In this document: in pieces, positions 11,242 to 54,608 of the stretch | Numbering within the stretch: the first letter of the stretch is position 1 | Layout of the letters: each line of letters opens with the position of its first letter | NCBI GenBank assembly: GCA_039029275.1 | Contig: JBCCGL010000005.1 | Span: 209,122 to 273,121, forward strand | Origin: Pseudomonadota bacterium | GTDB lineage: Bacteria; Pseudomonadota; Gammaproteobacteria; JBCCGL01 | Direction of reading: 5' to 3' | Length of the DNA stretch: 64,000 bases | Position numbers and translations under genes: made by a program | The notes under the pieces: generated by a model | Told to the model about the DNA's origin: nothing | Database searches by the model: none | What the model saw: the letters and a program-made list of their open reading frames with translations, nothing else

Positions 11242-13101
11242 ATGGCTTGGACAAAGAAAGTACTGCGTGTCAATTTAACCGACGGCAGCGTCGTCCGCGA
11301 GCCCCTCAACATGGAGTGGGCAAACGATTATCTCGGTCAGCGCGGATTGGCCACCCGTTACATGGTTGAAGAAGTCGACCCCGCGTGCGACGCGCTTGGC
11401 CCCGACAACAAACTGATCTTTGCGACCGGTCCTTTAACCGGCACAAACGCATCCACCGGCGGTCGCTACTCGGTTATCACCAAAAGTCCGCTGACCGGTG
11501 CGATCGCGTGCTCGAATTCGGGAGGATTTCTGGGCGCCGAGCTGAAAATGGCGGGGTGGGACATGATCGTATTCGAGGGCAAGGCAGCATCCCCGGTGTA
11601 TCTCAACATCGAGAACGATGAGGCCGAGCTGATCGCTGCGGACGACCTCTGGGGTAAATCGGTTTGGGAAACCGACAAGGTCTTGCATGAAAAGCACAAC
11701 GACCCACAGATGCGTGTCGCCACAATTGGCCGCTCGGCCGAGGCGGGTTGTCTGTTCGCGGCGGTGATCAACGATCTGCACCGCGCTGCGGGGCGCTCAG
11801 GCGTGGGCACCGTGATGGCATCGAAAAACCTCAAAGCGGTCACCGTTCGCGGGACCAAAGGTGTCGGAAACATCAACGACCCCGCGCGCTTTATGCAGGC
11901 GGTCAGCGCCGGTAAAGCCGTGCTGGCGGAAAATGCCGTCACCGGACAGGGCCTGCCCACCTACGGCACACAGGTGCTGATGAACGTGATCAACGAGGTC
12001 GGCGCCCTGCCGACGCGCAACATGCGCGAAGTCCAGTTCGAAGGCGCGCACGATGTCTCGGCGGAGAAAATGGCCGAGTCACGCGCATCCGACGGCAAGC
12101 CAAACCTCACCACAAACGCCGGCTGCTTCGCCTGCACGATTGCCTGCGGGCGCATCTCGACCGTGGACCAAAAGCACTTCAGCGTCGAAAACAAACCGGA
12201 ATACTGGGGCAACTCGGGTGGACTCGAATACGAAGCGGCGTGGGCCTTAGGGCCGGATACTGGCGTTAACGATCTCGACGCGCTCACCTACGTTAACTTT
12301 CTCTGCAACGAAGACGGCTTCGACCCAATCAGCTTTGGTGCGACGGTCGCGGCGGCGATGGAGTTGTTTGAGGAAGGCGCGATCACGACCGAGCACACCG
12401 ACGGAATCGAACTGAAATTCGGTTCCGCCGAGGCGCTTGTGGCGGTCACTGAGCTCACTGCCAAAGGTGAAGGTTTTGGCAAAGAACTCGGTTTGGGATC
12501 CAAGCGTTTGTGTGAGAAGTACGGACGACCGGAACTCTCGATGACGGTAAAAGGGCAGGAATTTCCGGCCTACGATCCGCGCGGCATTCAAAGCATGGGG
12601 CTGACCTATGCAACGTCCAATCGGGGAGCGTGCCACCTGCGCAGCTATACGGTTGCGGCGGAAGTTTTGGGGATTCCGGAAAAAACTGACCCGCTGGTCG
12701 CCGACGACAGCAAAGCCGGGCTGGTCAAAGCGTTTCAGGACGCGACTGCCGCGTTCGATTCTGCCGGGTTGTGCATCTTCACCTCATTTGCATGGACCCT
12801 CGATGACGTGGCGCCGCAGGTCGACGCGGCGTGCGAGGGCGACTGGAGCCCGGAGCGACTGGCCGAAGTGGGCGAGCGGATCTGGAATCTCGAACGCGAC
12901 TTTAACAACAAAGCGGGGCTGACAGCCGCTGACGACAAATTGCCGCAGCGCCTGCTCAAAGACGCGGCCAAAACCGGCCCGGCGCAAGGCAAGGTCTGCG
13001 ACCTCGACAAGATGCTGCCCGCCTATTACGAGCAGCGTGGTTGGACGCCTGATGGGGTGCCAACGGATGCAACGCGCGCGAAGTTCGGACTGCCCGCCTG
13101 A
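11242..13101 (+). CDS. tungsten-type aldehyde:ferredoxin oxidoreductase catalytic subunit (AOR family, AorB-like)
   Basis: 619 aa. The N-terminal domain MAWTKKVLRVNLTDGSV…YLGQRGLATRYM…GPLTG and the C-terminal …CHLRSY… region are characteristic of the AOR family. Confidence 0.9.
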   Translation: MAWTKKVLRVNLTDGSVVREPLNMEWANDYLGQRGLATRYMVEEVDPACDALGPDNKLIFATGPLTGTNASTGGRYSVITKSPLTGAIACSNSGGFLGAELKMAGWDMIVFEGKAASPVYLNIENDEAELIAADDLWGKSVWETDKVLHEKHNDPQMRVATIGRSAEAGCLFAAVINDLHRAAGRSGVGTVMASKNLKAVTVRGTKGVGNINDPARFMQAVSAGKAVLAENAVTGQGLPTYGTQVLMNVINEVGALPTRNMREVQFEGAHDVSAEKMAESRASDGKPNLTTNAGCFACTIACGRISTVDQKHFSVENKPEYWGNSGGLEYEAAWALGPDTGVNDLDALTYVNFLCNEDGFDPISFGATVAAAMELFEEGAITTEHTDGIELKFGSAEALVAVTELTAKGEGFGKELGLGSKRLCEKYGRPELSMTVKGQEFPAYDPRGIQSMGLTYATSNRGACHLRSYTVAAEVLGIPEKTDPLVADDSKAGLVKAFQDATAAFDSAGLCIFTSFAWTLDDVAPQVDAACEGDWSPERLAEVGERIWNLERDFNNKAGLTAADDKLPQRLLKDAAKTGPAQGKVCDLDKMLPAYYEQRGWTPDGVPTDATRAKFGLPA

Positions 13102-13180
13102 TTCCGGGGTGTACCGCACGGCGGCGAGTGAAACCGTCGCCGATTTTTTAACGATTCGGTCTTAAGCGAGTTACCAGACA

Positions 13181-14449
13181 ATGCAGCACGTTATCATTGG
13201 CGCGGGCCCCGCCGGCGTCATCGCCGCCGAACACCTGCGCAAGCTCGATCCAGCCAGCGACGTCACAATTATTGGCGATGAGCCAGAGGCGCCCTACTCG
13301 CGCATGGCGATCCCGTATTTCCTTATCGACAAAATCGAAGAGCGCGGAACCTTTCTGCGCAAAAGCGTCGGTCACTACGACGATCACCGCGTCAACGTCA
13401 TGCAGGATCGGGTAACGGCGATTAACTCCGACTCAAATACTCTGACGCTCAGAGGTGGCGGAACGCAGTCTTACGATCGCCTGTTGATCGCCACCGGTTC
13501 GCGCCCAGTATCGCCGCCGATTCCTGGCATGGACTTGCCCGGTGTTCACACCTGCTGGACGCTGGCGGATTCGCGCCACATCGTCGAGCTGGCCAAACCG
13601 GGCTCCAAAGTCGTGCTTATGGGCGCCGGATTCATCGGTTGCATTATTCTTGAGGCCCTGGCGTCGCGCGGCGTCGACCTCACGGTAGTCGAGATGGAAA
13701 ACCGCATGGTGCCGCGCATGATGGATGAAGACTCGGGCGGACTGATCAAGCGCTGGTGCGAATCAAAAGGCGTCACGGTGCTGACCTCCACCCGAGTGGC
13801 GGGTGTTGAAAAAGGCAAGGAAACGGCTTTGGCAATATCGCTTGAAAATGGCGACACGCTGCCGGCCGATCTTTTGATCTCGGCCACCGGAGTGACCCCG
13901 TGCACCGATTTCCTCCAAGGCAGTGGTATCGAAATCGATCACGGCATTCTGGTCGACCATCATTTGCGCACCAACGTCAGTAACATATTTGCCGCAGGTG
14001 ATGTCGCGCAAGGGCGTGACTTTTCCACCGGCGGGTATTCCGTGCAGGCGATCCAGCCAACCGCGGTCGAACACGGCCGGATCTGCGCAAACAACATGGT
14101 TGATGGTAACGAAATCACCCACGGCGGCAGTATCAACATGAATATCCTCGATACGATGGGACTCATTTCCGGCTCCTTCGGCATGTGGGAGGGTACCGAC
14201 GACGGTGATACAACCGAGCTGAGCGATCATGGTCGCTATCGATACCTGCGACTGAATTTTCAGGACGATGTTTTGGTCGGGGCCAATAGTCTCGGCCTGA
14301 CCCAGCACATTGGCGTGCTCCGCGGTCTGATCCAGAGCAAGCTGCATCTCGGTGCATGGAAGGCACGCTTGATGGACGACCCAACCCAGATCATGCCCGC
14401 CTATCTGGCCGCCACACAAGGCATGGGGTCGACGACCAAAGTGCAGTAA
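13181..14449 (+). CDS. FAD/NAD(P)-binding pyridine nucleotide-disulfide oxidoreductase (AorC-like)
   Basis: Two Rossmann motifs (VIIGAGPAG and VVLMGAGFIG) plus an AAGD FAD motif. It sits between the AOR gene and the MoaD-like gene. Confidence 0.8.
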   Translation: MQHVIIGAGPAGVIAAEHLRKLDPASDVTIIGDEPEAPYSRMAIPYFLIDKIEERGTFLRKSVGHYDDHRVNVMQDRVTAINSDSNTLTLRGGGTQSYDRLLIATGSRPVSPPIPGMDLPGVHTCWTLADSRHIVELAKPGSKVVLMGAGFIGCIILEALASRGVDLTVVEMENRMVPRMMDEDSGGLIKRWCESKGVTVLTSTRVAGVEKGKETALAISLENGDTLPADLLISATGVTPCTDFLQGSGIEIDHGILVDHHLRTNVSNIFAAGDVAQGRDFSTGGYSVQAIQPTAVEHGRICANNMVDGNEITHGGSINMNILDTMGLISGSFGMWEGTDDGDTTELSDHGRYRYLRLNFQDDVLVGANSLGLTQHIGVLRGLIQSKLHLGAWKARLMDDPTQIMPAYLAATQGMGSTTKVQ

Positions 14450-14453
14450 AGGC

Positions 14454-14705
14454 GTGAAAATTACGCTGAAACTCTACGCCACGCTGAGTGATTTGCTGCC
14501 CTCAGGCGCGCATAAAAATGCGGCCGAAATCGACGTCGATGAAAACGTCACACTCAACGAGATTATTCAGCGTTTTAATATTCCGCCTGAGCTGGCGCAT
14601 CTGGTGCTGATCAACGGACACTTTGCCTGCGAGGCTGATCGCGACAGGTCGATGCTTAAATCGGGTGATGTGCTGGCGATCTGGCCGCCGGTGGCTGGGG
14701 GATAG
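14454..14705 (+). CDS. MoaD/ThiS-family small sulfur-carrier-like protein
   Basis: 83 aa ending …IWPPVAGG (a C-terminal Gly-Gly). GTG start 5 nt after the upstream stop. Confidence 0.6.
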   Translation: MKITLKLYATLSDLLPSGAHKNAAEIDVDENVTLNEIIQRFNIPPELAHLVLINGHFACEADRDRSMLKSGDVLAIWPPVAGG

Positions 14706-14728
14706 CCGCCCTGCACTTCACCCGCGAT

Positions 14729-15001
14729 ATGGGCATTAACCGCCGCGATTTTTTTCGCATCCTGCCCACTGCCATCGGCAAAAGTGACCACGCAATCGAC
14801 GGATCGCAGATCAAGATTTCGCCGATAGGAGGCGTCGGCACGCTGAATATTTCACTCGGACCCGAGGGTGAGCGTCGCTTGTCCGCATTAATGGTATTGC
14901 CGCGAATGCGGGTGGATTTCGATTTCGTCGAGGTCAGTGACGAAGAGGCCCAGGCGTTTATGGCAAACTTCGATTTCTACTATCGGAGAGGTGGAGGTTA
15001 A
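14729..15001 (+). CDS. hypothetical small protein (90 aa) ending in RRGGG, translationally coupled to the next gene
   Basis: ORF with an N-terminal NRRDFFRI motif. Its last codons (GGAGGTTAA) form the Shine-Dalgarno sequence of the downstream GTG-initiated gene. Confidence 0.3.
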   Translation: MGINRRDFFRILPTAIGKSDHAIDGSQIKISPIGGVGTLNISLGPEGERRLSALMVLPRMRVDFDFVEVSDEEAQAFMANFDFYYRRGGG

Positions 15002-15002
15002 C

Positions 15003-15413
15003 GTGAGCGCGACCGGCCAATGCCTGTGTGGCGAAGTGCGATTTGCTTTTGGCGGTGAACCATTGTTTACCCTGCATTGTCATTGCCAGAGCTGTCGTCG
15101 TTTTAGCGGGGCGGCAGTTGCCACTTATGTTGGCGTAACGAAATCAGACTTTAAATGTGAGGAGGGCGCCATCAGCTTTCACGAGTCAGCCCCGGGAATA
15201 CGTTGGGGCTCGTGTGCGACCTGCGGCACATCGATCTGCTACGAGGCCGATTGGTGCGCTGACGAGATTCACCTTTTGATCGGCACGCTCGACACACCGG
15301 ATCGGTATGTACCGCAGCGGCATTCGTTTTATTCAGAGCGCCTTGCGTGGCTTGATCTGGCGAGCGAGTTGCCCAAAAGTGATGAGAGCCTCAGCACCGA
15401 ATCACGTGACTGA
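15003..15413 (+). CDS. GFA-family (glutathione-dependent formaldehyde-activating/CENP-V-like) zinc protein
   Basis: CLCGEVRF…HCHCQSCRR…CATCGT cysteine pattern typical of the GFA domain. GTG start preceded by GGAGG. Confidence 0.6.
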   Translation: MSATGQCLCGEVRFAFGGEPLFTLHCHCQSCRRFSGAAVATYVGVTKSDFKCEEGAISFHESAPGIRWGSCATCGTSICYEADWCADEIHLLIGTLDTPDRYVPQRHSFYSERLAWLDLASELPKSDESLSTESRD

Positions 15414-15450
15414 GACTGCCGAAACCGCGTACTTGAGGTAAGCTTGAGGT

Positions 15451-16470
15451 ATGGCAACGCAACTCACCGACAAATTTAGGCGTCCGCTGCACGATCTGCG
15501 AATTTCAGTTACGGATCGCTGCAACTTTCGTTGCGTGTATTGCATGCCCAAATCCGTGTTCGACGGTCACAGGTTTCTGGCGCGCAGCGAACTTTTGAGC
15601 TTTGAGGAAATCGAGCGCGTGGCGCGCGTATTCGTCGACTACGGCGTCAAAAAGCTCCGCATTACCGGCGGCGAACCCATGATCCGTCATCAGTTAGAAA
15701 AACTGATTGAACGCCTCGCGAACATCCCCGGTGTCGAAGATATCAGCATGACAACTAACGCCTCAATGATGACGGTCAAGCGCGCACGTTCGCTCCGCGA
15801 CGCAGGCATGCAGCGGCTTAATGTGAGCCTGGACGCGCTCGATGACGAGACATTCAAAGCTGTTAATGACGTCGATTTTCCGGTTGAGCGAGTGCTCGAA
15901 GGTGTTGCCGCCGCCGATTCCGTCGGGTTCGAATCGATCAAGATCAATATGGTTGTGAAAAAGGGCATGAACGGCCACAGCATCGTGCCGATGGCGCGCT
16001 ACTTTCACGGCAGCGGGCAAATCCTGCGTTTTATTGAATTCATGGACGTGGGCAATTCGAACCAGTGGAACTACGACTCGGTGATTTCATCGCGTGAAAT
16101 CGCAGACATGATCGACGCCGAAATGCCGATTGAACCGGTGCAGGCCAACTATCGCGGTGAAGTCGCCAAGCGCTGGCGATTTAAAGACGGTGGTGGCGAA
16201 ATTGGCATCATCTCGTCTGTGACTGAACCGTTTTGCGGCGACTGTTCGCGCGCGCGATTATCGGCGGTGGGCAATCTGTATACCTGTCTGTTCGCATCCC
16301 ATGGTCACGATCTGCGCGAGGTTATCCGCGCGGACGTTGACGAGTCATTACTGCGCGAACGCGTTAAAACTATCTGGTCAATACGTCGGGATCGATACTC
16401 CGAAACGCGCACCAGTGAGTCGGTCATTTCGATTGTTCCCAAGGTCGAGATGTCGCATATCGGTGGCTGA
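15451..16470 (+). CDS. moaA: GTP 3',8-cyclase (molybdenum/tungsten cofactor biosynthesis protein A)
   Basis: Radical-SAM motif CNFRCVYCMP, the C-terminal Fe-S cluster CGDCSRARLSA and the GG tail identify MoaA. Confidence 0.9.
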   Translation: MATQLTDKFRRPLHDLRISVTDRCNFRCVYCMPKSVFDGHRFLARSELLSFEEIERVARVFVDYGVKKLRITGGEPMIRHQLEKLIERLANIPGVEDISMTTNASMMTVKRARSLRDAGMQRLNVSLDALDDETFKAVNDVDFPVERVLEGVAAADSVGFESIKINMVVKKGMNGHSIVPMARYFHGSGQILRFIEFMDVGNSNQWNYDSVISSREIADMIDAEMPIEPVQANYRGEVAKRWRFKDGGGEIGIISSVTEPFCGDCSRARLSAVGNLYTCLFASHGHDLREVIRADVDESLLRERVKTIWSIRRDRYSETRTSESVISIVPKVEMSHIGG

Positions 16471-17254: not shown

Positions 17255-18162
17255 ACTATTCCTCCAAGCGTCATCGCCATGCCCGCAGCGTGATAGATGG
17301 TGAAGCTCTCGCCAAGCAATGAAACCGCAAGCGCGGCTGTGGCGATTGGGCCAATACTGGTGATCACACTGGTTTGACTCGCACCGATACGACCAATCGC
17401 AGCGCTGATCAAAAAGGCTGGGAGCGCGGTAGCGACGACCCCGATTAGCATTGTCAGCATCAGAACTGGCGTCGGAAGAAACAAATCATCGATGGGTCGT
17501 GTGAATGCAAAATGAACCCCGATCACCACGCTGGCCGTGCCCATCGCGATACACGTGAACATCGCACTGCCGAGTTGGCTGATGCACGGTTTGCTGAAAA
17601 GGAAGTAAACCGCAAAACACAGCGCGCTCGCCAATACCAGGACGCTACCTGTTATCGCGTCGCTGCCCAGCGAGCTGAAATCATGCAGAAAAATTAGCAC
17701 TACGCCGCCGTAGCTCAGCGGCAGCGCCAGCAACAATCGTCTGGATATTTTTTCAGAAAATATCAACCACGCGAGAAAGCACACAAATGTGGGGTAGATA
17801 AACAACAGCATGCGTTCGAACTGCGCGGTGATATAGGTCAGGCCAAGCAGATCGAAGTACGCCGCGCCGTAGTAACCAAGAATTCCGACCGCCATCGAAT
17901 AAAGGATGTATCGTTTGTCGAGCGTGCGAGTTTTTGCGGTGCGTCTGGATGAGTACCATCCCACGATCAAAAATATGGGAAACGCGAATGCCATGCGCAA
18001 AGCCATCAGCGTCTCTGTGGCAACGCCGTGCTGATAAACCAGTTTGATTAAAATCGGTTTGAGTGAAAACGTAATCGCCCCGGCGAGTGCAAAGTACAGA
18101 CCTGCACGGGATTGGTTACCATGTAGTGCGTTGATAGCGGGCATTGAAGGTTTTAAATCCAA
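17236..18162 (-). CDS. DMT-superfamily (EamA-like) transporter
   Basis: Ten hydrophobic helices in two EamA-like halves. Confidence 0.75.
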   Translation of the reverse strand: MDLKPSMPAINALHGNQSRAGLYFALAGAITFSLKPILIKLVYQHGVATETLMALRMAFAFPIFLIVGWYSSRRTAKTRTLDKRYILYSMAVGILGYYGAAYFDLLGLTYITAQFERMLLFIYPTFVCFLAWLIFSEKISRRLLLALPLSYGGVVLIFLHDFSSLGSDAITGSVLVLASALCFAVYFLFSKPCISQLGSAMFTCIAMGTASVVIGVHFAFTRPIDDLFLPTPVLMLTMLIGVVATALPAFLISAAIGRIGASQTSVITSIGPIATAALAVSLLGESFTIYHAAGMAMTLGGIVYLSRE

Positions 18163-18194
18163 CGAGTTTGCCGTCGTGGCGTGTGGAAACGATT

Positions 18195-19382
18195 ATGTTC
18201 GATTTATCTGATCTCGCAAACAAACGTTGCCAACAAGTTCGGGCGGCAATGATAACAGCGCAGTTGCCTGCACTGCTGGTTCTTGATCCTGTCAACATCT
18301 TTTACGCAACCGGCGCGCGCAATATGAGCGTGTTTGCCATGCGCGTACCCTCGCGGTACTTGATGATGTTCGCCGAAGGGCCGACGATTCTTTTTGAGTA
18401 CACGGGGTGCGAGCACCTCGCAAAAGGGTTACCGACAATCGATCAAATCCGACCCGCACGCGGCCTGTGTTACGTAAGCTCGGGAAACAACACTGAAGAG
18501 GCCGCCAGAGGTTTGGCCAGCGAAATCGCGGATTTGTATCGTGAGTACACCAGCGCGGATACGTCGCTCGCAATCGACCGCTTTCCACTAACGGTTACAG
18601 ACGCACTGCGTGATCAAGGGTTTTTGCTTAGCGATGCCGATCCGGTTTTTGCCCGCGCGCGCAAAGTCAAAATGCCTGAAGAAATCGAGGTTATGCGCGA
18701 AGGCGTGCGGCGCGTGGAATCGGCAGTCGATGTATTCAGAACTTCGCTTTTGCCAGGACGCTCCGAGTCAGAAGCCTGGAGTGAATTCCATCGCCCGTTT
18801 ATCGCGACTGAGGGCCAATATGTAACCACCCGCTTGATGCAGTCCGGCGAGCATACGTTTCCCTACTTTCAGGAATGCGCCAGTCGCACAATCGAATCCG
18901 GCGATTTGGTTTGTCTGGATACGGACGCACTCGGGTTCGGAGGGTATGCGGTCGACTTTTCGCGTACGTTTATTTGCGGTGACAAAGCACCGACCGCGCG
19001 ACAGCGCGAGCTTTATCAAAGGGCAAAGGATCAACTCGAGTGGAATTCCAGCTTGATCAAACCCGGCATCACGTTCGAGGAAATCGGAAACAAGGCATGG
19101 CCAGTGCCGCACGAACACCAAGCCAGCCGTTATTACTGTGTCGCACACGGTTTGGGCATGTCGGGTGAATTTCCGAACATTGCACATGCGACAAAAGGTG
19201 AACCCTATCCGATTGATGGTCTGGTCGAGTCGGGAATGGTTTTATGCGTTGAGAGTTATATTGGTTGTGAGCGAACCGGTCAGGGCGTCAAATTGGAGGA
19301 CCAGTTCGTCGTCACCCAGAACGGTGCCGACGCGATGAGTCGCTACCCTCTTGACGATCAGTTTTTGAATCGAGAAATTTAG
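18195..19382 (+). CDS. M24-family metallopeptidase (Xaa-Pro aminopeptidase/creatinase-like)
   Basis: Creatinase-type N-domain followed by the pita-bread domain (…DLVCLDTDALGFGGYAVDFSRTF… …HGLGM… …ESYIG…). The start is taken at MFDLSD to avoid overlap with the divergent EamA gene. Confidence 0.75.
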   Translation: MFDLSDLANKRCQQVRAAMITAQLPALLVLDPVNIFYATGARNMSVFAMRVPSRYLMMFAEGPTILFEYTGCEHLAKGLPTIDQIRPARGLCYVSSGNNTEEAARGLASEIADLYREYTSADTSLAIDRFPLTVTDALRDQGFLLSDADPVFARARKVKMPEEIEVMREGVRRVESAVDVFRTSLLPGRSESEAWSEFHRPFIATEGQYVTTRLMQSGEHTFPYFQECASRTIESGDLVCLDTDALGFGGYAVDFSRTFICGDKAPTARQRELYQRAKDQLEWNSSLIKPGITFEEIGNKAWPVPHEHQASRYYCVAHGLGMSGEFPNIAHATKGEPYPIDGLVESGMVLCVESYIGCERTGQGVKLEDQFVVTQNGADAMSRYPLDDQFLNREI

Positions 19383-21915: not shown

Positions 21916-22815
21916 CTAGTCGTCGCTGTCGCCTAGCATACGCCCTACGAGTGTCTTTAATTCGTTTGAATCTGCACCGGCCATGACGAGCGATCGAACA
22001 CGCGACGCCAACTCATTGGCCAACAGTAGCCTGGAACGAAACTCGCGCTTATCTTTGTTTTCGTGCCGGGACTTCGCACAAAGACAGGTACCGATTGCAT
22101 CGACGAGTTCGTCGATGCCAGCGCTCTCTGTAGCCACAGTTTTGACAACCGGTACTTGCTGTTCTTCGGGATCACGCAACTGCAACATGGCGTTAAGCTG
22201 TCGCGCGGTTTGTGCAGCGAGGGGCGTATCCGCCTTGTTGATTACCAGCACATCGGCGGTCTCCAGAATGCCGGCCTTAATCGCCTGGATATCATCGCCA
22301 AGCCCCGGCGCGTTGACCACAACGCTAACGTCGGCAATTTCTGATACCTCTGTTTCCGACTGACCGGTCCCGACCGTTTCGAGCAGCACGACGTCCCACC
22401 CGGCGGCGTCGATCAGATCGATAACGGTGAGAATATCTACGCTTAAACCGCCGAGGTGCCCGCGCGTGGCGATCGAACGTATAAACACATCCGGGTCTTC
22501 GTCGAATCCGATCATTCGCACGCGATCACCCAACACCGCGCCCCCGGAAATTGGACTCGACGGATCAACCGCCACAACAGCAACGCGCTTTTGCCGCTCT
22601 CGCAAGGCCGCGATCAGGCAATTAATCAGGGTCGATTTGCCAACACCGGGAACGCCGGTAACGCCAACAAGGGACGCGTGGCCGATATAATCGTTAACAC
22701 ACTCTTGCAGCCTGGTCGCCAGCTCAGCGGATGACTCCACCAGACTGATCGCGCGCGCGAGTGCACCAGCGTCGCGATCGCACACCCGAGCGACCAGTTG
22801 ATCCAGCCGGGACAT
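21916..22815 (-). CDS. meaB: methylmalonyl-CoA-mutase-associated G-protein chaperone (MeaB/ArgK family)
   Basis: P-loop GVTGVPGVGKST plus the rest of the MeaB pattern. It lies directly downstream of the mutase large subunit. Confidence 0.85.
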   Translation of the reverse strand: MSRLDQLVARVCDRDAGALARAISLVESSAELATRLQECVNDYIGHASLVGVTGVPGVGKSTLINCLIAALRERQKRVAVVAVDPSSPISGGAVLGDRVRMIGFDEDPDVFIRSIATRGHLGGLSVDILTVIDLIDAAGWDVVLLETVGTGQSETEVSEIADVSVVVNAPGLGDDIQAIKAGILETADVLVINKADTPLAAQTARQLNAMLQLRDPEEQQVPVVKTVATESAGIDELVDAIGTCLCAKSRHENKDKREFRSRLLLANELASRVRSLVMAGADSNELKTLVGRMLGDSDD

Positions 22816-22828
22816 TTCGTGCGCCCGA

Positions 22829-24511
22829 TTATTCGACGATCAGCGGTCGCCCAAAGCCGAGCTCTTCGCGCAGGCAAGCGATAATTTCACCGTGCGTGCA
22901 ATCCTCTGCGGCCGCATCGATCACCGCGGCGAACACATTATCGTTTTTACTGTTGGCCGCCCTGCGCAAATTATCGATACCGTTGGCGACTCGCGGCCGA
23001 CTGCGCGCGGCTTTGAATTGCTTGAACGATTCAACGTGCGCCACCATGCGATCGGCGTCTGGCCGGTACGGCGGCACCGAGTGCGAGTCGTCGTCTTCGC
23101 GATAGCAGTTTACACCCACGATTTTTTCTTCGCCGGACTCAACCTTGTCCTGCCACTGCATCGCGGACTCGCCGATCATTGCCTGAACCACGCCGCTTTC
23201 AACCGCCTTGTACATGCCACCCGCCGTGTCGATCTGGTCGATAATGCTGCGAATTTTTGCATCCATCGCGTCGGTCAGCTGTTCTACGTAATAAGAACCC
23301 GCTAGCGGATCGATGACATCGCACAGGTGCGCCTCTTCGCGCAGGATGTTTTGCGTGGCGACTGCAATTTTTGCTGTGTCCTCGGTCGGGCAACTGATGG
23401 CTTCGTCGTAGGCGTCGGTGTGCATCGACTGCAGACCACTCAAAATGCCCGCGATAGCTTGCGCGGTGACTCGCGAGATATTGTTGAGCGGCTGTTGCGC
23501 GGTCAAATCGGCGCCGGATGTTTGCCCGTGAAACTTGAAACGCCAGGATTTGGGATTCTTTGCGCCCAGTCTTTCCCGCGCAATCTCGGCCCAGATGCGT
23601 CTACCCGCGCGAAATTTCGCGACCTCTTCGAACAAGCTGATTGAGATGTCAAAAAAGAACGTGAATCGGGGCAAAATAACGTCGGGATCCATACCGCGTC
23701 CAATGCAGTCCTCGGCGTATTGAAGCGCACTCGATAAGGTAAACGCCATGGTTTCCGCAGGTGTGGCGCCGGCCTGTTGCATGTGCTGTCCAACAATCGA
23801 CATTGGGTTCCAGTTGGGCACGTGTTGGCGACAAAACTCGATGTGGTCAAGCAACAAGCGGCGCGAGCCCGGCAGCGAAAGCCGGTAAAACATGTGGTTG
23901 GCAACAAAGTGTGAGATGTAGTCGCTTTGATTCGACGTGCCGCTGATTTTGTCCCACCCCACGCCGCGTCGACGCGCAACATTCAGGACGAAGGCAAGCA
24001 GCGTAAATGGCGATGGGTCATTCATCGCGGTAGAGATTCGGTCAATCGGCACGCCGTCGAGAGCGCTGTCCATGTGCTCGACCGTGTTAACCACCGTGCC
24101 GCACGTGCCCAGCAACGGCAGCGGTACTTCGTCGCAGTCATTGCCGCGAAAGCCGGAGTTGCACGGCAGCAGGCTGATCGCATTGGCGCCGCGATCGAGA
24201 ATTGTGCGTACCCGCTCATTGTAATCGTGTGGAGTGCCGAGTCCGATCAACTGACGCTGCGACCAGGTTCTGCCGCGGTGCATGGTGGGATAGATGCCGC
24301 GCGTGTAGGGATACTGTCCAGGAAATCCGAGCTGCTCAAGAAACTCGTTTTCATCACACTCACCTGCCGGCGTGTACAGCGGATCGATTTCGATGCCGGA
24401 TCGGTTGCGAACGGTTTTGTCGTTGGCACCGATCTGCTGGCGATATTCCTCACTCCACTCGCCCGACGCGCGGGCAAGTGGCGATTCTTTGCGTTGATCA
24501 AATTTATGCAT
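22829..24511 (-). CDS. B12-dependent acyl-CoA mutase large (substrate-binding TIM-barrel) subunit, split type, specificity unassigned
   Basis: 560 aa with the MCM-family barrel (…[22 protein letters not shown]…). It lacks a C-terminal B12 domain, which is encoded separately upstream. Confidence 0.85.
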
Positions 24512-24550
24512 GTTGAATGTCTCCCGCTCCGAATGCTGTGTCGGGGTTGA

Positions 24551-24976
24551 TTACATTAGATAAGCCGCAAGTTTTTCTTGTCTGGTTGCATTCCCCAGTC
24601 GCAGTGCGCAGTCAACGATCTCGTCGCGCAGCGATCCCGGACCGAAAATCGCCCGTACACCGACTTCCTTGAGCATTGCGTGCTCGGGATCGGGCACGAT
24701 CCCGCCAACAAAAACGGCGACATTGGCCAGGCCCGCATCGTCCAGCGCCTGCATTAAATCGGGAATGATCAGGTGGTCGGTCGCCAGCGTGCTGATACCA
24801 ATGAGATCGACGTCTTCCTGGGTCGCGAGCTGGACCACTGCATCAATCGATTGCCACGGCGGTGTGTAAATAACCTCCATGCCCGCGTCGCGCAGGTAGC
24901 TGGCGACGATTCGGCTACCACGGTCGTGGCCGTCAAGTCCAATCTTGGTGATGAGTACACGGCAGGGAGTGTTCAC
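24551..24976 (-). CDS. acyl-CoA mutase small subunit (cobalamin-binding domain)
   Basis: 141 aa. The DxHxxG B12-binding motif (GLDGHDRG) and the Rossmann-like remainder fit the small subunit. Confidence 0.8.
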   Translation of the reverse strand: MNTPCRVLITKIGLDGHDRGSRIVASYLRDAGMEVIYTPPWQSIDAVVQLATQEDVDLIGISTLATDHLIIPDLMQALDDAGLANVAVFVGGIVPDPEHAMLKEVGVRAIFGPGSLRDEIVDCALRLGNATRQEKLAAYLM

Positions 24977-24996
24977 ATCATTAACCTAACAACTGT

Positions 24997-25653
24997 TTGT
25001 TTTTCTATTACAACGCAGCTACGGTACACTGTCAACCATTTTGCAACTGGAGCCTTGCTGCCGTGCCAGCAACTGATGTGAAATCTACGCGCCGCCGCTC
25101 GCATAACCGCGTGCAACCTTTGCTCGATGCTGCCGCGAAACTGTTCACCGTGAAGGGTTATCGGGAGACCACTATGCGGGATATCGCCGCCGAAGCAGGA
25201 ATGCAGGCCGGTTCGGTTTACTACCATTTCAAATCGAAGGCGGATTTGTTGCTGGCCGTTTATACCCTGGCGGTAGATAGTCTTGAAGCGCAACTCGAGA
25301 GCGCGCTATCGAACGTTGATGACCCGTGGCAACGGCTTGAGGTCGCCGTGGTCGCGCACCTAGAAACCATTCTCGATCACAACGACTATTCGAGTGTCAT
25401 GATCGGCGTGACACCCGATAAGGCGGAGGATATTCGGCCAGCGCTTATCGCCTTACGCGACCGTTACGAATCGTACTTTGAAGCGATCATCGCGCGATTA
25501 CCTCTGGCTAAACGAACCGATCGTCGATTGCTGCGACTGATGTTGCTAGGTGCGCTCAACTCGACCAAATCCTGGTACAAAGAAGACGAGAAATCTGCCA
25601 GGGCAGTCGGGATCGCGTACGTGAGATTTCTCAGAAATTCGATCGAAGCGTGA
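24997..25653 (+). CDS. TetR/AcrR-family transcriptional regulator, divergent from the mutase operon
   Basis: HTH block …FTVKGYRETTMRDIAAEAGMQAGSVYYHF… is a TetR signature. The true start is possibly a little downstream of 24997. Confidence 0.75.
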   Translation: MFFYYNAATVHCQPFCNWSLAAVPATDVKSTRRRSHNRVQPLLDAAAKLFTVKGYRETTMRDIAAEAGMQAGSVYYHFKSKADLLLAVYTLAVDSLEAQLESALSNVDDPWQRLEVAVVAHLETILDHNDYSSVMIGVTPDKAEDIRPALIALRDRYESYFEAIIARLPLAKRTDRRLLRLMLLGALNSTKSWYKEDEKSARAVGIAYVRFLRNSIEA

Positions 25654-25747: not shown

Positions 25748-26704
25748 TTACCCTGGGGGTTTTTCAAGCGGCTGGCCGCATGTGGGACAAAAACCGGATT
25801 GCTCCAGTGTTTCGCTGTGTATTTGATCGCGGATTTGTTCGGCTGCGCGCCGCGAAAGACCCAGGCTTTTGCGCAGGGCATCGATGTCGGCTTCTTCAAC
25901 ATTACAGATATTGCCATCCTCGAGCGCCCTGCGAAATTCTCTTTTCAAGCTTGCACGGCGTCGGTGTAGCTGATCGTTGAGCCCACTGGCAATAATGCCG
26001 GCGGGCAGTGCTGCCATTCCGATTCCGACGATGGTAATAATCGCCCCGAAAACTTTTCCTGCAACCGTAATAGGCGTCACATCACCATAACCCACTGTTG
26101 TTAGCGTTGCGACTGCCCACCACATCGCCGCGGGAATCGACCCGAAGGCTTCAGGTTGCGCCTTGTGCTCGACCAGCCAGGCGCCACTGGCAGCGAACAC
26201 CAGCATCAGCATAAGAATAAAAAATCCCGCGAAAAATGCACCGGCTTCTTCCTCAAACACAGCGAGCAGCATTGCAAGTGCCGGCGAGTAGCGCGTGAGC
26301 TTGAGCAGGCGCAACATGCGGAAGGTCCGCAGTATTCGCAGATCAATCGGGATAATCAGGTAGAGCAATGAGGGCAATATCGCCAACAGATCAATTAGCG
26401 CCAGCGGTGACTTTGCCCACGCCAAACGCGAAGGTGTGTCCGGGTTTTCAGGCGCGACCCAAAGTCGCGCTGCATACTCAATGACAAACACACTGAGTGA
26501 AAAGACTTCAAAGAAATCGAAGAGCGGCTGCCAACTGGTGTAAAGCGAATCGACGGTCTCCAATATAACCGCGACCACATTTAGCGTGATCAGGACAATC
26601 AGCGATATCTCGAGCAGGCGAGGTCCGTCGGCACCCCGATCAGGGCGCTCAAGCCACCAGTAAACGCGTGACCGCAATGTCGGAGGCACGATGACCTCAC
26701 TCAT
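25748..26704 (-). CDS. voltage-gated potassium channel (6TM, Kv/KvAP-like)
   Basis: The selectivity filter TVGYGD, an S4 with Arg at every third position (LRILRTFRMLRLLKLTR) and the pore helix identify it. The start is taken at MSEVIV, which overlaps the upstream stop as ATGA. Confidence 0.8.
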   Translation of the reverse strand: MSEVIVPPTLRSRVYWWLERPDRGADGPRLLEISLIVLITLNVVAVILETVDSLYTSWQPLFDFFEVFSLSVFVIEYAARLWVAPENPDTPSRLAWAKSPLALIDLLAILPSLLYLIIPIDLRILRTFRMLRLLKLTRYSPALAMLLAVFEEEAGAFFAGFFILMLMLVFAASGAWLVEHKAQPEAFGSIPAAMWWAVATLTTVGYGDVTPITVAGKVFGAIITIVGIGMAALPAGIIASGLNDQLHRRRASLKREFRRALEDGNICNVEEADIDALRKSLGLSRRAAEQIRDQIHSETLEQSGFCPTCGQPLEKPPG

Positions 26705-27887
26705 GACGAAGCTTGCTCCAACCGCGCACAAGTGGAACCGCGATTTGACTGAACAGCGCTGTACCCCAAAGCAAATTGCCGACCAAAGCAGGAACGTGCG
26801 GCACCACAAAGAACGTCGCGATCGCCAGACCTATCCCGAACAAGCGGATATCTCCGCGACCGAAATCCGACTCGATGCGATGCTCGATAACGTGCCGCAG
26901 TGCCCAAAGCATCGCTATATATCCAGCCAGACCAAAACAGCCAACGGCGGCGTACTTTGTTGGATACGGCTCCCAAAATCCGACTTTCACCTCAGCGGCC
27001 AACGCGACACCCACCATAACACCGCAAAGCATCAGGACCAGATGCGCAAGCCACCAAAATACCAGCGTGGAAATTCGGCTGTCCTTCGGTTTACCGTTGC
27101 CGATAAAGTCGAAATAAATCCAGCACATGATGAACATCGAGACGCCGCCGATGACAAAATTGACCAGCACATCGGGCGTCACTTTGTAAATTCCTTTCTC
27201 GGAGAGGGTCACCACCAGTTTAAAAAAACCCTCGCCTAATACGATCAGTGTCAGTAGTGCAAAACGTTCAGCCATATGTGCCATTCGTGGCGCAAATCGC
27301 TCAAACCGCAGCACGCTCAGCTTGGGAATCTGGTACACGGTTTGGGTGGCCAGCATGGTGAGCCCGAACATCCAATAACCATAGGGCTGGGGTACAAGCC
27401 CTGACACCGCAAATAAGACAGAAAAAAAGATGAAATTGCGCGCCTGCTCCGAGCACAACGATTGACCAGTAGAATTATTGCGCCGGGCGCGAAGGTAAAG
27501 GGCTGCAAGCAGTGCTCGATTGACAGCAAAACCCAGAGTAAAAAATGCCCACCCCTTACCGTCGATTGCCGGGATGGCGGCCGCCATAAACATCACGGTG
27601 CAAATCATCATCGACATGATGATTCTGTGCCATACATCAGTACTGACAAAGATTGAATTGAAAACACTCAACTCACCCCAGGCATACCAAAGCGCAATAA
27701 AAACGCCGGCAAAAATAAAAAATCCCTGAACGGTTAAATGATCTGAAAGGAAATTACCCAATAAAAAAATGGTGACGACGTGGATCAAGTCGTAAAACAA
27801 CTCGGTCCAGTGCACGTGCTCGTGCACGTGATCAAGATCGTGATGATGTTGTGGCTTGCGCCACATCGGGTGGTCATTCAATGCCAT
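26697..27887 (-). CDS. LtrA-family (low-temperature-requirement A-like) integral membrane protein
   Basis: 396 aa. The N-terminal …RKPQHHH…VHWTELFYDLIHVVTIF… block is characteristic of the LtrA/DUF1211-type family. There are about ten TM helices. Confidence 0.7.
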   Translation of the reverse strand: MALNDHPMWRKPQHHHDLDHVHEHVHWTELFYDLIHVVTIFLLGNFLSDHLTVQGFFIFAGVFIALWYAWGELSVFNSIFVSTDVWHRIIMSMMICTVMFMAAAIPAIDGKGWAFFTLGFAVNRALLAALYLRARRNNSTGQSLCSEQARNFIFFSVLFAVSGLVPQPYGYWMFGLTMLATQTVYQIPKLSVLRFERFAPRMAHMAERFALLTLIVLGEGFFKLVVTLSEKGIYKVTPDVLVNFVIGGVSMFIMCWIYFDFIGNGKPKDSRISTLVFWWLAHLVLMLCGVMVGVALAAEVKVGFWEPYPTKYAAVGCFGLAGYIAMLWALRHVIEHRIESDFGRGDIRLFGIGLAIATFFVVPHVPALVGNLLWGTALFSQIAVPLVRGWSKLRHE

Positions 27888-27962: not shown

Positions 27963-28430
27963 TCAACCACGCCCCCGATATCCTGCAACGCCTTGATCGG
28001 GTGCCCAAACACCTGCGGGGAGTTCCCCGTGCTGAAAAAACACATCGATAGGAATACCACCGCGTGGATACCAGTACCCACCAATGCGAAGCCATCTGGG
28101 ATTCAGCTCGTCGACCAGTCTGCGTGCGATGCTGACGGTACAGTCTTCGTGAAATGCGCCGTGATTTCGAAACGAACCCAAAAACAGTTTTAGTGATTTG
28201 CTCTCTACCAGTTTTTCATTCGGCACGTAATCGATCACCAGATGCGCGAAATCCGGTTGGCCGGTTATTGGACACAGCGAGGTGAATTCCGGCGCGGTAA
28301 ACCGGGTCACATAATCAACATCGCGTTGAGGGTTTGGCACGGTTTCGAGCACCGCTTGTTCCGGCGACTGCGGCTGGATCGTGTCGCCACCCAGCTGCGT
28401 GAGGTTTTCGTAAATTGATTGATCGGTCAT
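27963..28430 (-). CDS. queF: NADPH-dependent 7-cyano-7-deazaguanine (preQ0) reductase, type I
   Basis: …[15 protein letters not shown]…, with the Cys in the QueF motif, and …HEDC… match QueF. Confidence 0.85.
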
Positions 28431-28513
28431 GATTCTTTTCTGCTTGAAACCAGTTGAAAACAGACAACTAAAAAACGTTATCGAGGCAGGTTATGCAAGG
28501 CATAAAATTGATG

Positions 28514-28537
28514 AAAAAACGGTCTGGAACCGTTTTT
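28514..28537. terminator. bidirectional hairpin terminator between queE and queF
   Basis: AAAAACGGT-ctgga-ACCGTTTTT is a palindromic stem flanked by A-runs and T-runs on both strands. Confidence 0.5.
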
Positions 28538-28584
28538 AGCGCCAGCCTCGTAGGGGTGAAGCGCATGGACGCGCTGAACACAAA

Positions 28585-28629
28585 GCGCAGTTTACACGGA
28601 GTAAATGAGCATTTTGAATCAATTTTTAA
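28585..28629. repeat. copy B of the same motif (GCGCAGTTTACACGGAGTAAATGAGCA-TTTTGAATCAATTTTTAA)
   Basis: Direct sequence comparison with 5077-5152. It is located between the queE stop and the queE/queF terminator hairpin. Confidence 0.6.
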
Positions 28630-28656
28630 CGCTGCAAAACCAACGTAGATAGTTTT

Positions 28657-29376
28657 TTATACACCGCGCTCATTGCCCCATAACTGCACATGCAACTGCG
28701 GCAACACGCGCACATTAAACCAATGTCGGGAATTGACTTCATCGACCAGCCATCGCATTTTTGCATTCAGCGCATCGGGATCGACCGCTGCGTCACCGCT
28801 GCTTAGATTGCACGGCTGCAGTACGATCGGCAGTTGGGGGTGCGCGATGCGCCGCTCGCCAGCCCATTCGAGATCGCGCTCGTCCGCAACCACTATCTTT
28901 AACGATAGTGATGTATTGCTTCCCACAGCTTTAATGCACGCTGATAATTTTTCTGCATCGAATTTCATTTTTGACGACGGCGGCTTGGGGCTTAGCGTCA
29001 TCGCATCGAGTTTGGAAAACCAGGGCTGCAGGACTGTGCCCTGCGTTTCCATCGCGAAGGTGAACCCTTTTTTGTGTCCAGCGTCAATTAACTCGTCCAG
29101 AGGTTGCATCGCCGGATTGCCGCCGGAAAGCGTAATCAAGATCGGCTGCCCGTGGCTGAGCTTCTCGACTTTTTCCAGCACTGCGCCCGCACTCATGGGT
29201 ATCCAGTCCTTGCGATACTTTTTATCGACCGCGTAAAGCGTATCGCACCAACTGCAGCGAAAGTCACAGCCGCCGGTGCGGACAAAAACCGTGGGCTGGC
29301 CAATCAACGCGCCTTCGCCCTGAATCGTCGGGCCGAATATCTCGCTGATAAAAATCGTGTCGGTGGATGTGCTCAC
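28657..29376 (-). CDS. queE: 7-carboxy-7-deazaguanine synthase (radical SAM)
   Basis: The CDFRCSWCDT cluster and the QueE-specific layout identify it. It is adjacent to queD and queC. Confidence 0.9.
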   Translation of the reverse strand: MSTSTDTIFISEIFGPTIQGEGALIGQPTVFVRTGGCDFRCSWCDTLYAVDKKYRKDWIPMSAGAVLEKVEKLSHGQPILITLSGGNPAMQPLDELIDAGHKKGFTFAMETQGTVLQPWFSKLDAMTLSPKPPSSKMKFDAEKLSACIKAVGSNTSLSLKIVVADERDLEWAGERRIAHPQLPIVLQPCNLSSGDAAVDPDALNAKMRWLVDEVNSRHWFNVRVLPQLHVQLWGNERGV

Positions 29377-29729
29377 GGGCGATATTCAGCGTTTGATTTT
29401 GGCGTTTCAGAAACGCAGACGGCGGAGACCTCTGGCCAACGCGCCTTGCACCAATCATAAAATGTCCTGGCCAGCTTTTCCGCGGTTGTGTTGTCGTCAC
29501 CAAACACATCGTTTAGATGTCGATGATCAACGTCATCGTTCAAATATTTTTTAAAAACATCCAACTCGCGATAGTCGCGCACAAATCCATGCTCGTTTAG
29601 TTCATTTGCGACAAGCTCGACGGTCACCACATAGTTGTGGCCGTGCATGCGCATGCACGGGTGGTCGTCGGCCAGACCGAAAAGTTGGTGCGAGGCGGAA
29701 AAATGAAATTCCTTGGTAATGCGAAACAC
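29373..29729 (-). CDS. queD: 6-carboxy-5,6,7,8-tetrahydropterin synthase
   Basis: 118 aa. …FSASHQL…HGHNY… is the PTPS/QueD zinc motif. Confidence 0.9.
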   Translation of the reverse strand: MFRITKEFHFSASHQLFGLADDHPCMRMHGHNYVVTVELVANELNEHGFVRDYRELDVFKKYLNDDVDHRHLNDVFGDDNTTAEKLARTFYDWCKARWPEVSAVCVSETPKSNAEYRP

Positions 29730-30439
29730 TACGTGACCCTGTTGCTTTCGTGATCCGCGACTGCCTGCTTCCAGAAATCTGGATCTAGGTACTCGGTTGG
29801 ATCAACAACACCCGCGAGAGAAAATGCCTCGCGCCGCTCCACGCAGGTGCCGCAGCGCCCGCAGTGATCTGCGCCGCCCTTGTAGCACGACCAAGTTTCA
29901 GTGATTGGCACACCAAATTCTTCGGCCTGCCGCGCTATCTCGGTTTTATCGGTGTTTACAAACGGTGCTAATAGATCGACATCGTGAACGCCATCGAGCG
30001 CGAGTTTCTGCATCGCGCGAACGCTGTCGATAAAGTCCGGGCGGCAGTCCGGATAGATAAAGTGATCGCCGCCGTGCACGGCGATGGCGACGGCATCGCA
30101 CGCACGCGCCGCCGCTACGCCAAAGGCAATCGTCAGCATGATTGCGTTGCGATTCGGAACCACGGTCACGCGCATGCTCTCCTCTTCGTAGTGACCGTCC
30201 GGTACGTCGACATCATCGGTGAGGGCTGAACCGCTGAGGCGCTGACCAACATGGCGGATATCGATAATTTCGTGCGGCACGCGCAGGGCGCTGGCACAGC
30301 GCGCGGCATAGTCGAGCTCAACGGTATGGCGTTGCCCGTAGTCGAACGACACGAGCACATTGAGGTCAGTCTCGCGCGCCATTTTGTAGGCGAGAGTGAC
30401 CGAGTCGAGTCCGCCGGAGCAGACGACAAGCGTTTTCAT
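29729..30439 (-). CDS. queC: 7-cyano-7-deazaguanine synthase
   Basis: The PP-loop SGGLDS and the C-terminal zinc cluster CGRCGTC identify QueC. Confidence 0.9.
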   Translation of the reverse strand: MKTLVVCSGGLDSVTLAYKMARETDLNVLVSFDYGQRHTVELDYAARCASALRVPHEIIDIRHVGQRLSGSALTDDVDVPDGHYEEESMRVTVVPNRNAIMLTIAFGVAAARACDAVAIAVHGGDHFIYPDCRPDFIDSVRAMQKLALDGVHDVDLLAPFVNTDKTEIARQAEEFGVPITETWSCYKGGADHCGRCGTCVERREAFSLAGVVDPTEYLDPDFWKQAVADHESNRVT

Positions 30440-44476: not shown

Positions 44477-45347
44477 CGTGGAACGTCAACGTTGCCCAAA
44501 GTGATTCGTAGAAAATACGCGGCTCTTCCAAACCGAGAGCCGTGAGAATTCCTGTATACCAATACTCCGATTCATCCTTCTTTCGTAAGTCTATAAAACG
44601 CACATACCAGTTGCCCGATTGGCCAAGTGTGAAACGGACTTGGCCGTTTTCATCTGAGCGCACCCTAACCAAATCAGAATATTCGGATTCGGTATTTTCG
44701 TCTATGTGCGCTTCATGAGAGGCAAAAACCAGCGTATCGGCCAAGGGTTTGCCGTCTTTGTAAATTGTTGCAGCAAATTGCTCACCCTCAGTGAGTGCAA
44801 ATGTATTCACATCCGGGATAATTTCAACGGGATAGCCCAATGGGTTTGCAAAATTTTCACTGAGTTTGTCGCCGGCCTGAATAGCGGACTTGGCGAATTT
44901 GGAAAATCGTTCGACAACGGCGGTGTCTGATTCGCCAGCAATTTTTCGTTCTGCGATCTGATCCGACAATCCCTCAGATTTGAGATAACGGTTAAACTTT
45001 TCCGCCGCCAGCCGTATCGTGTGCGGGCGAGTCGCTAAACCGATGAAATACGTACCTTCTGCGCCAAATTCGTACCTGCCCCGCGTTACCTTGTCGCTAA
45101 GCGTCCACTCGTTTTCAAGAAAAGAGTCGGTATCCCCTGAGGGCAGTAACACATCCGCCGACGCTCGCGATCGTCCTTTGATTGAGGACTCGCTCACATG
45201 AAACGATCCGTTTATGAATGGAAGCGATACGTCGGTGTTCGGAGTGACGAAATGTGATTCGGGCTTTGCGAACAGGGTGTGCGCGTGAGCGTGTCCGAGG
45301 CTGCACATCAATACGGCAGCGGTCACCATTTGAGCGGAGGCACGCAT
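44469..45347 (-). CDS. secreted protein, DUF4198-like (periplasmic partner often found with Ni/Co uptake genes)
   Basis: Signal peptide (MVTAAVLMCSLGHAHA) followed by a beta-rich ~270-aa domain. It starts 3 nt after hupE. The family assignment is from memory and uncertain. Confidence 0.45.
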   Translation of the reverse strand: MRASAQMVTAAVLMCSLGHAHAHTLFAKPESHFVTPNTDVSLPFINGSFHVSESSIKGRSRASADVLLPSGDTDSFLENEWTLSDKVTRGRYEFGAEGTYFIGLATRPHTIRLAAEKFNRYLKSEGLSDQIAERKIAGESDTAVVERFSKFAKSAIQAGDKLSENFANPLGYPVEIIPDVNTFALTEGEQFAATIYKDGKPLADTLVFASHEAHIDENTESEYSDLVRVRSDENGQVRFTLGQSGNWYVRFIDLRKKDESEYWYTGILTALGLEEPRIFYESLWATLTFHVR

Positions 45348-45349
45348 CG

Positions 45350-54597: not shown

Positions 54598-54608
54598 GAC
54601 CAGAAAGT

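Follow-up and report, generated by a model that had tools for sequence, protein, structure and literature searches.

Which acyl-CoA ester is rearranged by an adenosylcobalamin (AdoCbl)-dependent mutase whose specificity residues depart from those of the well-studied members of its family? This question is raised by a four-gene cassette in a 64,000-nucleotide stretch of gammaproteobacterial DNA (lineage JBCCGL01; assembly GCA_039029275.1, contig JBCCGL010000005.1, positions 209,122 to 273,121 of the forward strand), hereafter called the window, whose coordinates are used throughout. The cassette encodes the large and small subunits of a split acyl-CoA mutase, a MeaB-type chaperone and a divergent TetR-family regulator. 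A preliminary description, made from the letters of the DNA, had singled out the motifs RQLIGLG and SLLPCNS in the large subunit as atypical and had proposed that the substrate may be novel. The cassette was found to be a four-gene ortholog set of the already characterised pivalyl-CoA mutase (PCM) locus of Xanthobacter, and the atypical residues are the known signature of PCM. We are therefore confident, short of certainty, that the locus encodes a two-subunit AdoCbl-dependent pivalyl-CoA/isovaleryl-CoA mutase with its MeaB chaperone and a divergent TetR repressor, and the enzyme very probably interconverts isovaleryl-CoA and pivalyl-CoA.

The gene layout of the preliminary description, a 560-aa barrel and a 141-aa B12 subunit accompanied by MeaB and a divergent TetR, was borne out by the four open reading frames (ORFs; Table 1). 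The translations revealed the P-loop GVPGVGKST and an NKAD motif in MeaB, and the base-off/His-on motif D15-G-H17-D-R-G20 in the small subunit. The large subunit scored below the NCBIfam equivalog cutoff for methylmalonyl-CoA mutase (MCM; NF006944, 413.8 versus 876) and far below that for IcmF (NF045497, 221 versus 1500), and NCBIfam holds no equivalog model for PCM. The NCBI label of the window large subunit and of hundreds of its orthologs is 'acyl-CoA mutase large subunit family protein'.

Table 1. Genes and putative regulatory elements of the mutase cassette, in window coordinates.
Feature	Position	Strand	Supporting match or detail
MeaB-type G-protein chaperone, 299 aa	21916-22815	-	PF03308, E = 2e-83; TIGR00750, 279.8 bits (cutoff 240.75); last gene of the operon
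Acyl-CoA mutase large (substrate-binding TIM-barrel) subunit, 560 aa	22829-24511	-	PF01642, E = 4e-161
Small B12-binding subunit, 141 aa	24551-24976	-	GTG start; PF02310, E = 1e-22; TIGR00640, 123 bits
Intergenic fragment containing the putative TetR-site letters AACAGTTGTT	24977-25062		
Operator-like element AACAGTTGTTAGG	24985-24997	-	Half-sites AACA/TGTT; between the -10 box and the small-subunit start; putative TetR site
Putative sigma-70 promoter of the mutase operon	25007-25035	-	-35 TTGACA (25035-25030), 17-nt spacer, -10 TGTAAT (25012-25007)
TetR-family regulator, divergent	24997-25653 (listed ORF)	+	TetR_N (PF00440, E = 4e-20); TetR_C_24 (PF17932, E = 4e-14)

A tblastn search of 72,556 plasmids with the large subunit gave the best match on pXAUT01 of Xanthobacter autotrophicus Py2, at 71.8% identity across 98% of the query sequence. 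The 60-80% band contained six records (63-72%), and the other 413 matches lay below 60%, those listed being at 36-39%. The annotated region of pXAUT01 contains a TetR gene (Xaut_5045), a B12-binding protein (Xaut_5044), a large subunit (Xaut_5043) and a LAO/AO transport ATPase, that is, MeaB (Xaut_5042). Exact-sequence look-up identified Xaut_5043 as UniProt A7IQE5, with the Swiss-Prot recommended name 'Pivalyl-CoA mutase large subunit', and Xaut_5044 as 'Pivalyl-CoA mutase small subunit' (Swiss-Prot/UniRef name). The Xanthobacter enzyme has reportedly been characterised as an isovaleryl-CoA/pivalyl-CoA mutase, and the PCM assignment is based on that characterisation together with the names attached to these two exact sequences. 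By BLASTP, the window proteins were 72% (large subunit, 394/549), 66% (small subunit), 51% (MeaB) and 41% (TetR) identical to their Xanthobacter counterparts. Both systems comprise separate alpha (about 560 aa) and beta (141-148 aa) subunits with DxHxxG in beta and an adjoining G-protein chaperone. They differ in that the TetR gene is co-directional in Xanthobacter and divergent in the window, and in that Xaut_5041-5035, encoding a PaaD-like thioesterase, a PaaK-like ligase, an AMP-dependent ligase and an ABC transporter, follow the Xanthobacter cluster and are absent from the window. The Xanthobacter genes are carried on the megaplasmid of a soil alphaproteobacterium, whereas the window cassette is chromosomal and its host a probably marine gammaproteobacterium.

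Active-site residues were compared by pairwise alignments to solved structures and in a 124-sequence multiple sequence alignment. As a numbering check, I90, D117 and Q208 were recovered for 2-hydroxyisobutyryl-CoA mutase (HCM; 4r3u), and the chain index of 5req runs one below the literature numbering. The alignments confirmed that both motifs are atypical when set against MCM, isobutyryl-CoA mutase (ICM) and HCM; the register was correct, which rules out that canonical residues had been hidden by misalignment. At the first motif the window reads RQLIGLG (RQ-L88-I-G-L), compared with RQ-Y89-A-G-F in MCM and RQ-I90-A-G-F in HCM; at the second it reads S-L-L115-P-C-N-S, compared with S-V-A-F-D-L-P in MCM and S-T-D117-F-D-M-P in HCM. 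Two specificity positions beyond those listed earlier are also changed, MCM Arg207 being Asn205 and MCM Tyr243 being Gln242 in the window. In MCM, Tyr89, Arg207 and Tyr243 hold the substrate carboxylate; all three are replaced, and the earlier statement that the enzyme is not a canonical MCM holds on this ground as well as on the equivalog score. MCM His244 is retained as His243, and the equivalents of the CoA-channel residues Gln197, Gln330 and His328 of MCM are conserved in the multiple alignment. Since the anchor residues of MCM and HCM are Leu88, Leu115, Asn205 and Gln242 here, the pocket would lack a carboxylate or hydroxyl anchor and appears suited to a branched all-carbon acyl group.

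At the same positions Xaut_5043 carries an identical RQLIGLG, SLLPCCS in place of SLLPCNS, [IV]ANH and GQHMQQ, and the motif VGQHMQQAG is common to both proteins. The first-shell residues L88, L115-P116-C117, N205-H206, Q242-H243 and Q246 are identical. The window large subunit thus has the complete PCM signature, namely Leu at MCM Tyr89, Asn at Arg207, Gln at Tyr243, Leu at HCM Asp117, and LPC[NC]S replacing FDxPT, with N118 (C118 in Xanthobacter) as the sole signature difference between the two. The preliminary description had placed the split architecture with the isobutyryl-, 2-hydroxyisobutyryl- or pivalyl-CoA mutases. The pivalyl-CoA option is very probably the right one, and the suggestion of a novel substrate fails because the characterised PCM family, whose Xanthobacter member is closely similar and has orthologous neighbours, already possesses these residues.

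The enzyme belongs to a discrete clade whose members share 63% identity or more, while no other mutase exceeds 41% identity to them. The protein database yielded over 120 relatives, 70-84% identical and all generically annotated, from Gammaproteobacteria (Pseudomaricurvus, Haliea), Bradyrhizobium, Roseovarius, Chloroflexota, Actinomycetota and Deltaproteobacteria. Among GTDB species representatives, 394 stretches encode a relative, many of them marine, and SAR324, Acidimicrobiales and Roseobacters are further hosts. In an exhaustive search of 1.84 billion 50%-identity representatives the clade collapsed to one full-length representative (P0125; 70% identity, 887 bits), and the next full-length proteins stood at 41% (467 bits) and 40% (448 bits); the combined signature LIL / [LI]PCNS / NH / QH / Q was carried by clade members only. 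Within the clade, L88, I89, L91, L115, P116, C117, S119, N205, H206, Q242, H243 and Q246 were invariant in 121-184 members. Positions scored as invariant or nearly so were L88, I89, L91, L114, P116, C117, S119, F121, N164, Q195, S196, Y198, S200, A204, N205, H206, Q242, H243, Q246, D288 and D366.

Outside the clade, the nearest lineages (P0127, 41%; P0128, 40%) share Leu at MCM Tyr89 and Gln at MCM Tyr243. P0127 reads LIL/TPDNT, with Asn replacing the catalytic His244, and P0128 reads LVY/TGSSV. Uncharacterised residue combinations were also seen in many other 50%-cluster representatives, and acyl-CoA mutases of uncharacterised specificity probably exist outside this window.

The gene neighbourhoods of relatives point to a physiological role. 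ORFs were called in 82 loci and neighbours were clustered; the resulting counts are under-estimates, as antisense ORFs displaced real genes in high-GC genomes. The conserved core was TetR, small subunit, large subunit and MeaB, with MeaB in 49 and TetR in 43 of the 65 analysed loci. Within 8 kb of the mutase in 60 loci whose enzyme has Asn118 and Met207 (N/M type, as in the window), an acyl-CoA ligase occurred in 17, an acyl-CoA dehydrogenase in nine, a BktB-type thiolase in eight, and a family III CoA-transferase, a PaaK-like ligase and a PaaI thioesterase in five each; components of a Liv-type ABC transporter were found in 3-7. These accessory genes fit a route from acid to acyl-CoA, to isovaleryl-CoA and into the leucine pathway, so that the cassette would serve to channel quaternary-carbon (tert-butyl) acids such as pivalate into leucine/isovaleryl-CoA degradation. 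In locus L048, a mutase of the Xanthobacter type, with Cys118 and Gln207 (C/Q type), is accompanied by a 659-aa ligase. Orthologs of this ligase, at 50-58% identity, adjoin N/M-type mutases in Gammaproteobacteria, Sulfitobacter, Roseovarius, Rhodoferax and an actinobacterial metagenome-assembled genome; the two types therefore share one module of uptake, activation and isomerisation. The closest relatives (79% and 78% identity) have the same minimal divergent cassette as the window, in unrelated flanks. An M24 peptidase of the window (18144-19382) resembles one beside TetR in Roseovarius-type loci (31% over 163 aa), a similarity taken as coincidence.

Several observations speak against a simple transfer of function from Xanthobacter. 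N118 and M207, which the window enzyme has in common with most clade members, are replaced by C118 and Q207 in the characterised enzyme. Residue 207 lies two positions past the Arg207 equivalent on the same beta-strand, on which V203 (I203 in Xanthobacter) also differs, and it may face the barrel interior and the pocket. The window further has the rarer N124 (9/121) and A334 (16/121), where Xanthobacter has I124 and V334. We know of no assayed N118/M207-type member. No CoA ligase, isovaleryl-CoA dehydrogenase or methylcrotonyl-CoA carboxylase was found near the cassette in the window. In relatives, the co-clustered acyl-CoA dehydrogenase could not be clearly identified as an isovaleryl-CoA dehydrogenase: among solved structures its best matches were 2pg0 and LCAD, and isovaleryl-CoA dehydrogenase ranked only sixth. 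Pivalate is not known to be an abundant natural compound, though about 400 species representatives, including many marine ones, carry a member of the clade. Finally, the AlphaFold2 model of the large subunit (pLDDT 72.5, pTM 0.76), which showed a clear (beta/alpha)8 pattern, was of low confidence at the active-site segments 75-89, 206-210, 332-342 and 365-405, and for this reason it served for fold assignment only and not for residues 118 and 207.

Such observations could be accommodated if the N118/M207 subtype, including the window enzyme, kept fold and chemistry yet acted physiologically on something other than pivalyl-CoA, or on a wider range of acyl-CoA esters, an alternative that we regard as improbable. 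Candidate substrates would be branched or neo-acyl-CoA esters from the breakdown of natural lipids, isoprenoids or osmolytes, and the pivalyl-CoA activity of Xanthobacter would be lineage-specific or a side activity. In 184 sequences, positions 118 and 207 co-vary almost perfectly (N/M 154, including the window; C/Q 27; other 3), and the sole characterised enzyme is of the C/Q type. The occurrence of the clade in marine Gammaproteobacteria, Roseobacters, SAR324, Acidimicrobiales and Bradyrhizobium, hosts in which pivalate would not be an expected substrate, would agree with this alternative, as would the minimal, ligase-free cassettes of the window and its closest relatives and the ambiguous nature of the co-clustered dehydrogenase. 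However, the first-shell determinants (equivalents of MCM Tyr89, Arg207, Tyr243 and His244 and of HCM Asp117) are identical in both subtypes, and orthologous sets of ligase and ABC transporter genes flank both. Sequences of the C/Q group, which come from Bradyrhizobium and Xanthobacter, form a tight subclade with at least 87% identity to one another and to the characterised enzyme, and N/M members are 64-82% identical to that enzyme; with identities reaching 82%, the C/Q group is nested within the clade and is not a sister family, and the co-variation may simply mark one young lineage. Transfer of the PCM specificity to the window enzyme is very likely. If the alternative were true, the N118/M207 subtype would isomerise an unrecognised natural quaternary- or tertiary-carbon acyl-CoA sensed by its TetR, and the Xanthobacter enzyme would be a narrow C118/Q207 offshoot of a family dominated by N118/M207 members in marine Gammaproteobacteria, Roseobacters, SAR324 and Actinomycetota.

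A divergent ICM, HCM or MCM, the other way to read an enzyme of this fold, is very hard to reconcile with the comparison to these families. The split architecture is like that of ICM and HCM, and the best solved match by both sequence and fold was the HCM large subunit 4r3u (E = 7e-103; TM 0.80 for the AlphaFold2 model, followed by MCM and IcmF); the same fold search of the PDB returned no solved PCM structure. HcmAB of Aquincola tertiaricarbonis indeed resembles the window system in its separate subunits, its MeaB-like partner and its tertiary/quaternary-branched C4-C5 acyl-CoA substrate. It is, however, only about 33-40% identical; its Ile90, Asp117 and Gln208 correspond to Leu88, Leu115 and Asn205, its FDMPT loop to LPCNS and its Tyr-His to Gln-His. 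IcmF (4xc6, 5cjv, 5cjw) shares AdoCbl-dependent acyl-CoA mutase chemistry and a G-protein chaperone function and has a weak isovaleryl-CoA/pivalyl-CoA side activity, and structures with both of these ligands exist; it is nevertheless a single fused chain of about 1100 aa with about 27% identity to the window protein in structural alignment, and the sequence match spans only window residues 226-549. ICM has Phe80 and Gln198 (no IcmA sequence was aligned directly) where the window, with its split subunits, has Leu88 and Asn205. MCM (P. shermanii MutAB, human MMUT) has in common the superfamily, the fold, the radical 1,2-shift and the His244 equivalent, but is a single polypeptide of about 730 aa that combines the barrel with the B12 domain, and it differs at the three carboxylate-binding residues. 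Ethylmalonyl-CoA mutase, compared here by architecture and context only, is a single chain of the MeaA type in the ethylmalonyl-CoA pathway, whereas the window enzyme is split and has no ccr or epimerase gene nearby, features that speak against its belonging there. Taken over ICM, HCM and MCM, identity to the window enzyme was 33-41%, against 72% to PCM; MCM Tyr89/Arg207/Tyr243, HCM Ile90/Asp117 and Phe at the ICM Phe80 equivalent are all absent, and the scores fall under the NCBIfam MCM and IcmF cutoffs. As stated in the preliminary description, no epimerase or carboxylase adjoins the cassette; neither occurs within about 10 kb on either side, and no 2-hydroxyisobutyrate (2-HIBA)-CoA ligase was found near it.

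That the cassette is a decaying or non-functional remnant, as its isolation from pathway genes and its shortish MeaB (299 aa versus 329 aa in Xanthobacter) might suggest, is next to negligible, given four intact ORFs, conserved DGHDRG, His243, P-loop and NKAD, a conserved promoter and operator, and a large subunit 79-84% identical to those of the closest relatives, whose cassettes are equally minimal and whose MeaBs measure 294-303 aa.

Under the PCM assignment, a mechanism can be proposed whose steps are established for the acyl-CoA mutase family and are extended by inference to the window enzyme. The small subunit would bind AdoCbl base-off/His-on through DGHDRG, and substrate binding in the (beta/alpha)8 barrel of the large subunit would trigger homolysis of the Co-C bond. 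The resulting 5'-deoxyadenosyl radical would take a methyl hydrogen from pivalyl-CoA, the thioester carbonyl would undergo a 1,2-shift from the quaternary carbon to the methylene radical to give a tertiary radical, and return of the hydrogen would yield isovaleryl-CoA, the whole being reversible. MeaB, a GTPase, would gate cofactor loading and the removal of damaged cofactor. TetR would probably repress the operon at AACAGTTGTTAGG, the element that separates the -10 box from the start codon; its release would probably be brought about by an acyl-CoA or the free acid.

The listed TetR ORF begins at a TTG codon (24997), 20 nt from the small-subunit start. Alignment with Xaut_5045 and the length of 197-200 aa of TetRs in the closest relatives place the true start probably at GTG 25063 (196 aa, with GGAG 10 nt upstream) or GTG 25078, and the intergenic region then measures about 86 bp. 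A generic promoter scan missed the mutase promoter, whose -10 hexamer has G at position 2, and an inverted-repeat finder returned nothing in the intergenic region; both the promoter and the operator-like element were recovered by comparative alignment. In a comparison with four related divergent loci, TTGAC of the -35 box was invariant, and the 17-nt spacer and a T-A-rich hexamer were kept in position. No Rfam match to a B12 riboswitch or other RNA was found anywhere in the window.

The element AACAGTTGTTAGG was conserved in the alignment with loci L002, L004, L006 and L007. The pattern AACANNTGTTWGG is unique in the window, where 0.04 matches are expected by chance, and exact matches were found in 10 of 83 loci from alpha-, beta- and gammaproteobacteria. 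In L004 (9506-9518), L006 (9487-9499), L082 (6948-6960) and L083 (5108-5120) it precedes the small-subunit start by at most 25 bp, and in the six other loci its coordinates are consistent with the 5' end of the operon (near 8844-8921 in L024, L030, L040 and L080). Both in loci with a divergent TetR and in those where TetR is co-directional, the pattern thus sits at the 5' end of the PCM operon or close to it, and we take the element as the candidate TetR operator. The weak similarity of the regulator to the acyl-CoA-responsive TetRs Bacillus FadR, FasR and PsrA suggests that its ligand may be an acyl-CoA or an acid.

The practical value of the PCM assignment lies in annotation, since generically labelled orthologs can be named pivalyl-CoA mutase by orthology and the invariant signature RQLIGLG, [LI]PC[NC]S, ANH and GQHMQQ. 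With the conserved operator-like element and the TetR, the inducer should be straightforward to look for.

The cassette in the window is minimal, consisting of TetR, small subunit, large subunit and MeaB with no pathway genes adjacent. One flank encodes Hsp20, GNAT, HAD, M24 peptidase and EamA proteins, and the other an ion channel, LtrA and queFEDC. The occurrence of the same cassette amid unrelated flanks in close relatives, together with 70-75% identity across phyla, suggests that it is mobile. GC content was 0.574 across 22-24 kb against a window mean of about 0.53, a contrast too weak for the claim of a horizontal-transfer island. On pXAUT01 (L081, 1-7300) the PCM cluster directly adjoins genes of the epoxyalkane:coenzyme M (CoM) pathway, encoding 2-hydroxypropyl-CoM lyase, two short-chain dehydrogenases/reductases, a pyridine nucleotide-disulfide oxidoreductase whose annotation is consistent with 2-KPCC, and phosphosulfolactate synthase. 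A second mutase-like place was also detected on this plasmid by tblastn.

Other features of the window were recorded alongside. Next to the cassette, on the minus strand at 25748-27887, the ORF of the ion-transport channel (25748-26809) shares about 110 bp with that of LtrA (26697-27887), and the true start of the channel is probably a downstream codon. They are followed by contiguous queF-queE-queD-queC (27963-30439, minus strand) for biosynthesis of the preQ1/queuosine precursor, as judged from the ORF translations. A tungsten-type aldehyde:ferredoxin oxidoreductase (11242-13101, plus strand; AFOR_N and AFOR_C, E = 1.9e-138) precedes a pyridine-nucleotide-disulfide oxidoreductase (13181-14449) and a MoaA-like radical SAM enzyme (15451-16470), a module (11242-16470) unusual for an apparently marine aerobic gammaproteobacterium. 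The stretch 44000-52000 has a lower GC content (0.47-0.49) and may be an island; it contains tandem FemAB-like GNAT genes (Acetyltransf_6; 46003-47148 and 47145-48260), a DUF4198 protein and a 567-aa ORF (49654-51357) without a Pfam match. At 51490-56165 on the minus strand, where local GC is elevated (0.58-0.61) relative to the remainder of the window, a DnaE2-type error-prone polymerase (1080 aa, DNA_pol3_alpha) is preceded by an ImuB-like IMS-family protein (518 aa), which makes this region a probable imuA-imuB-dnaE2 mutagenesis cassette.

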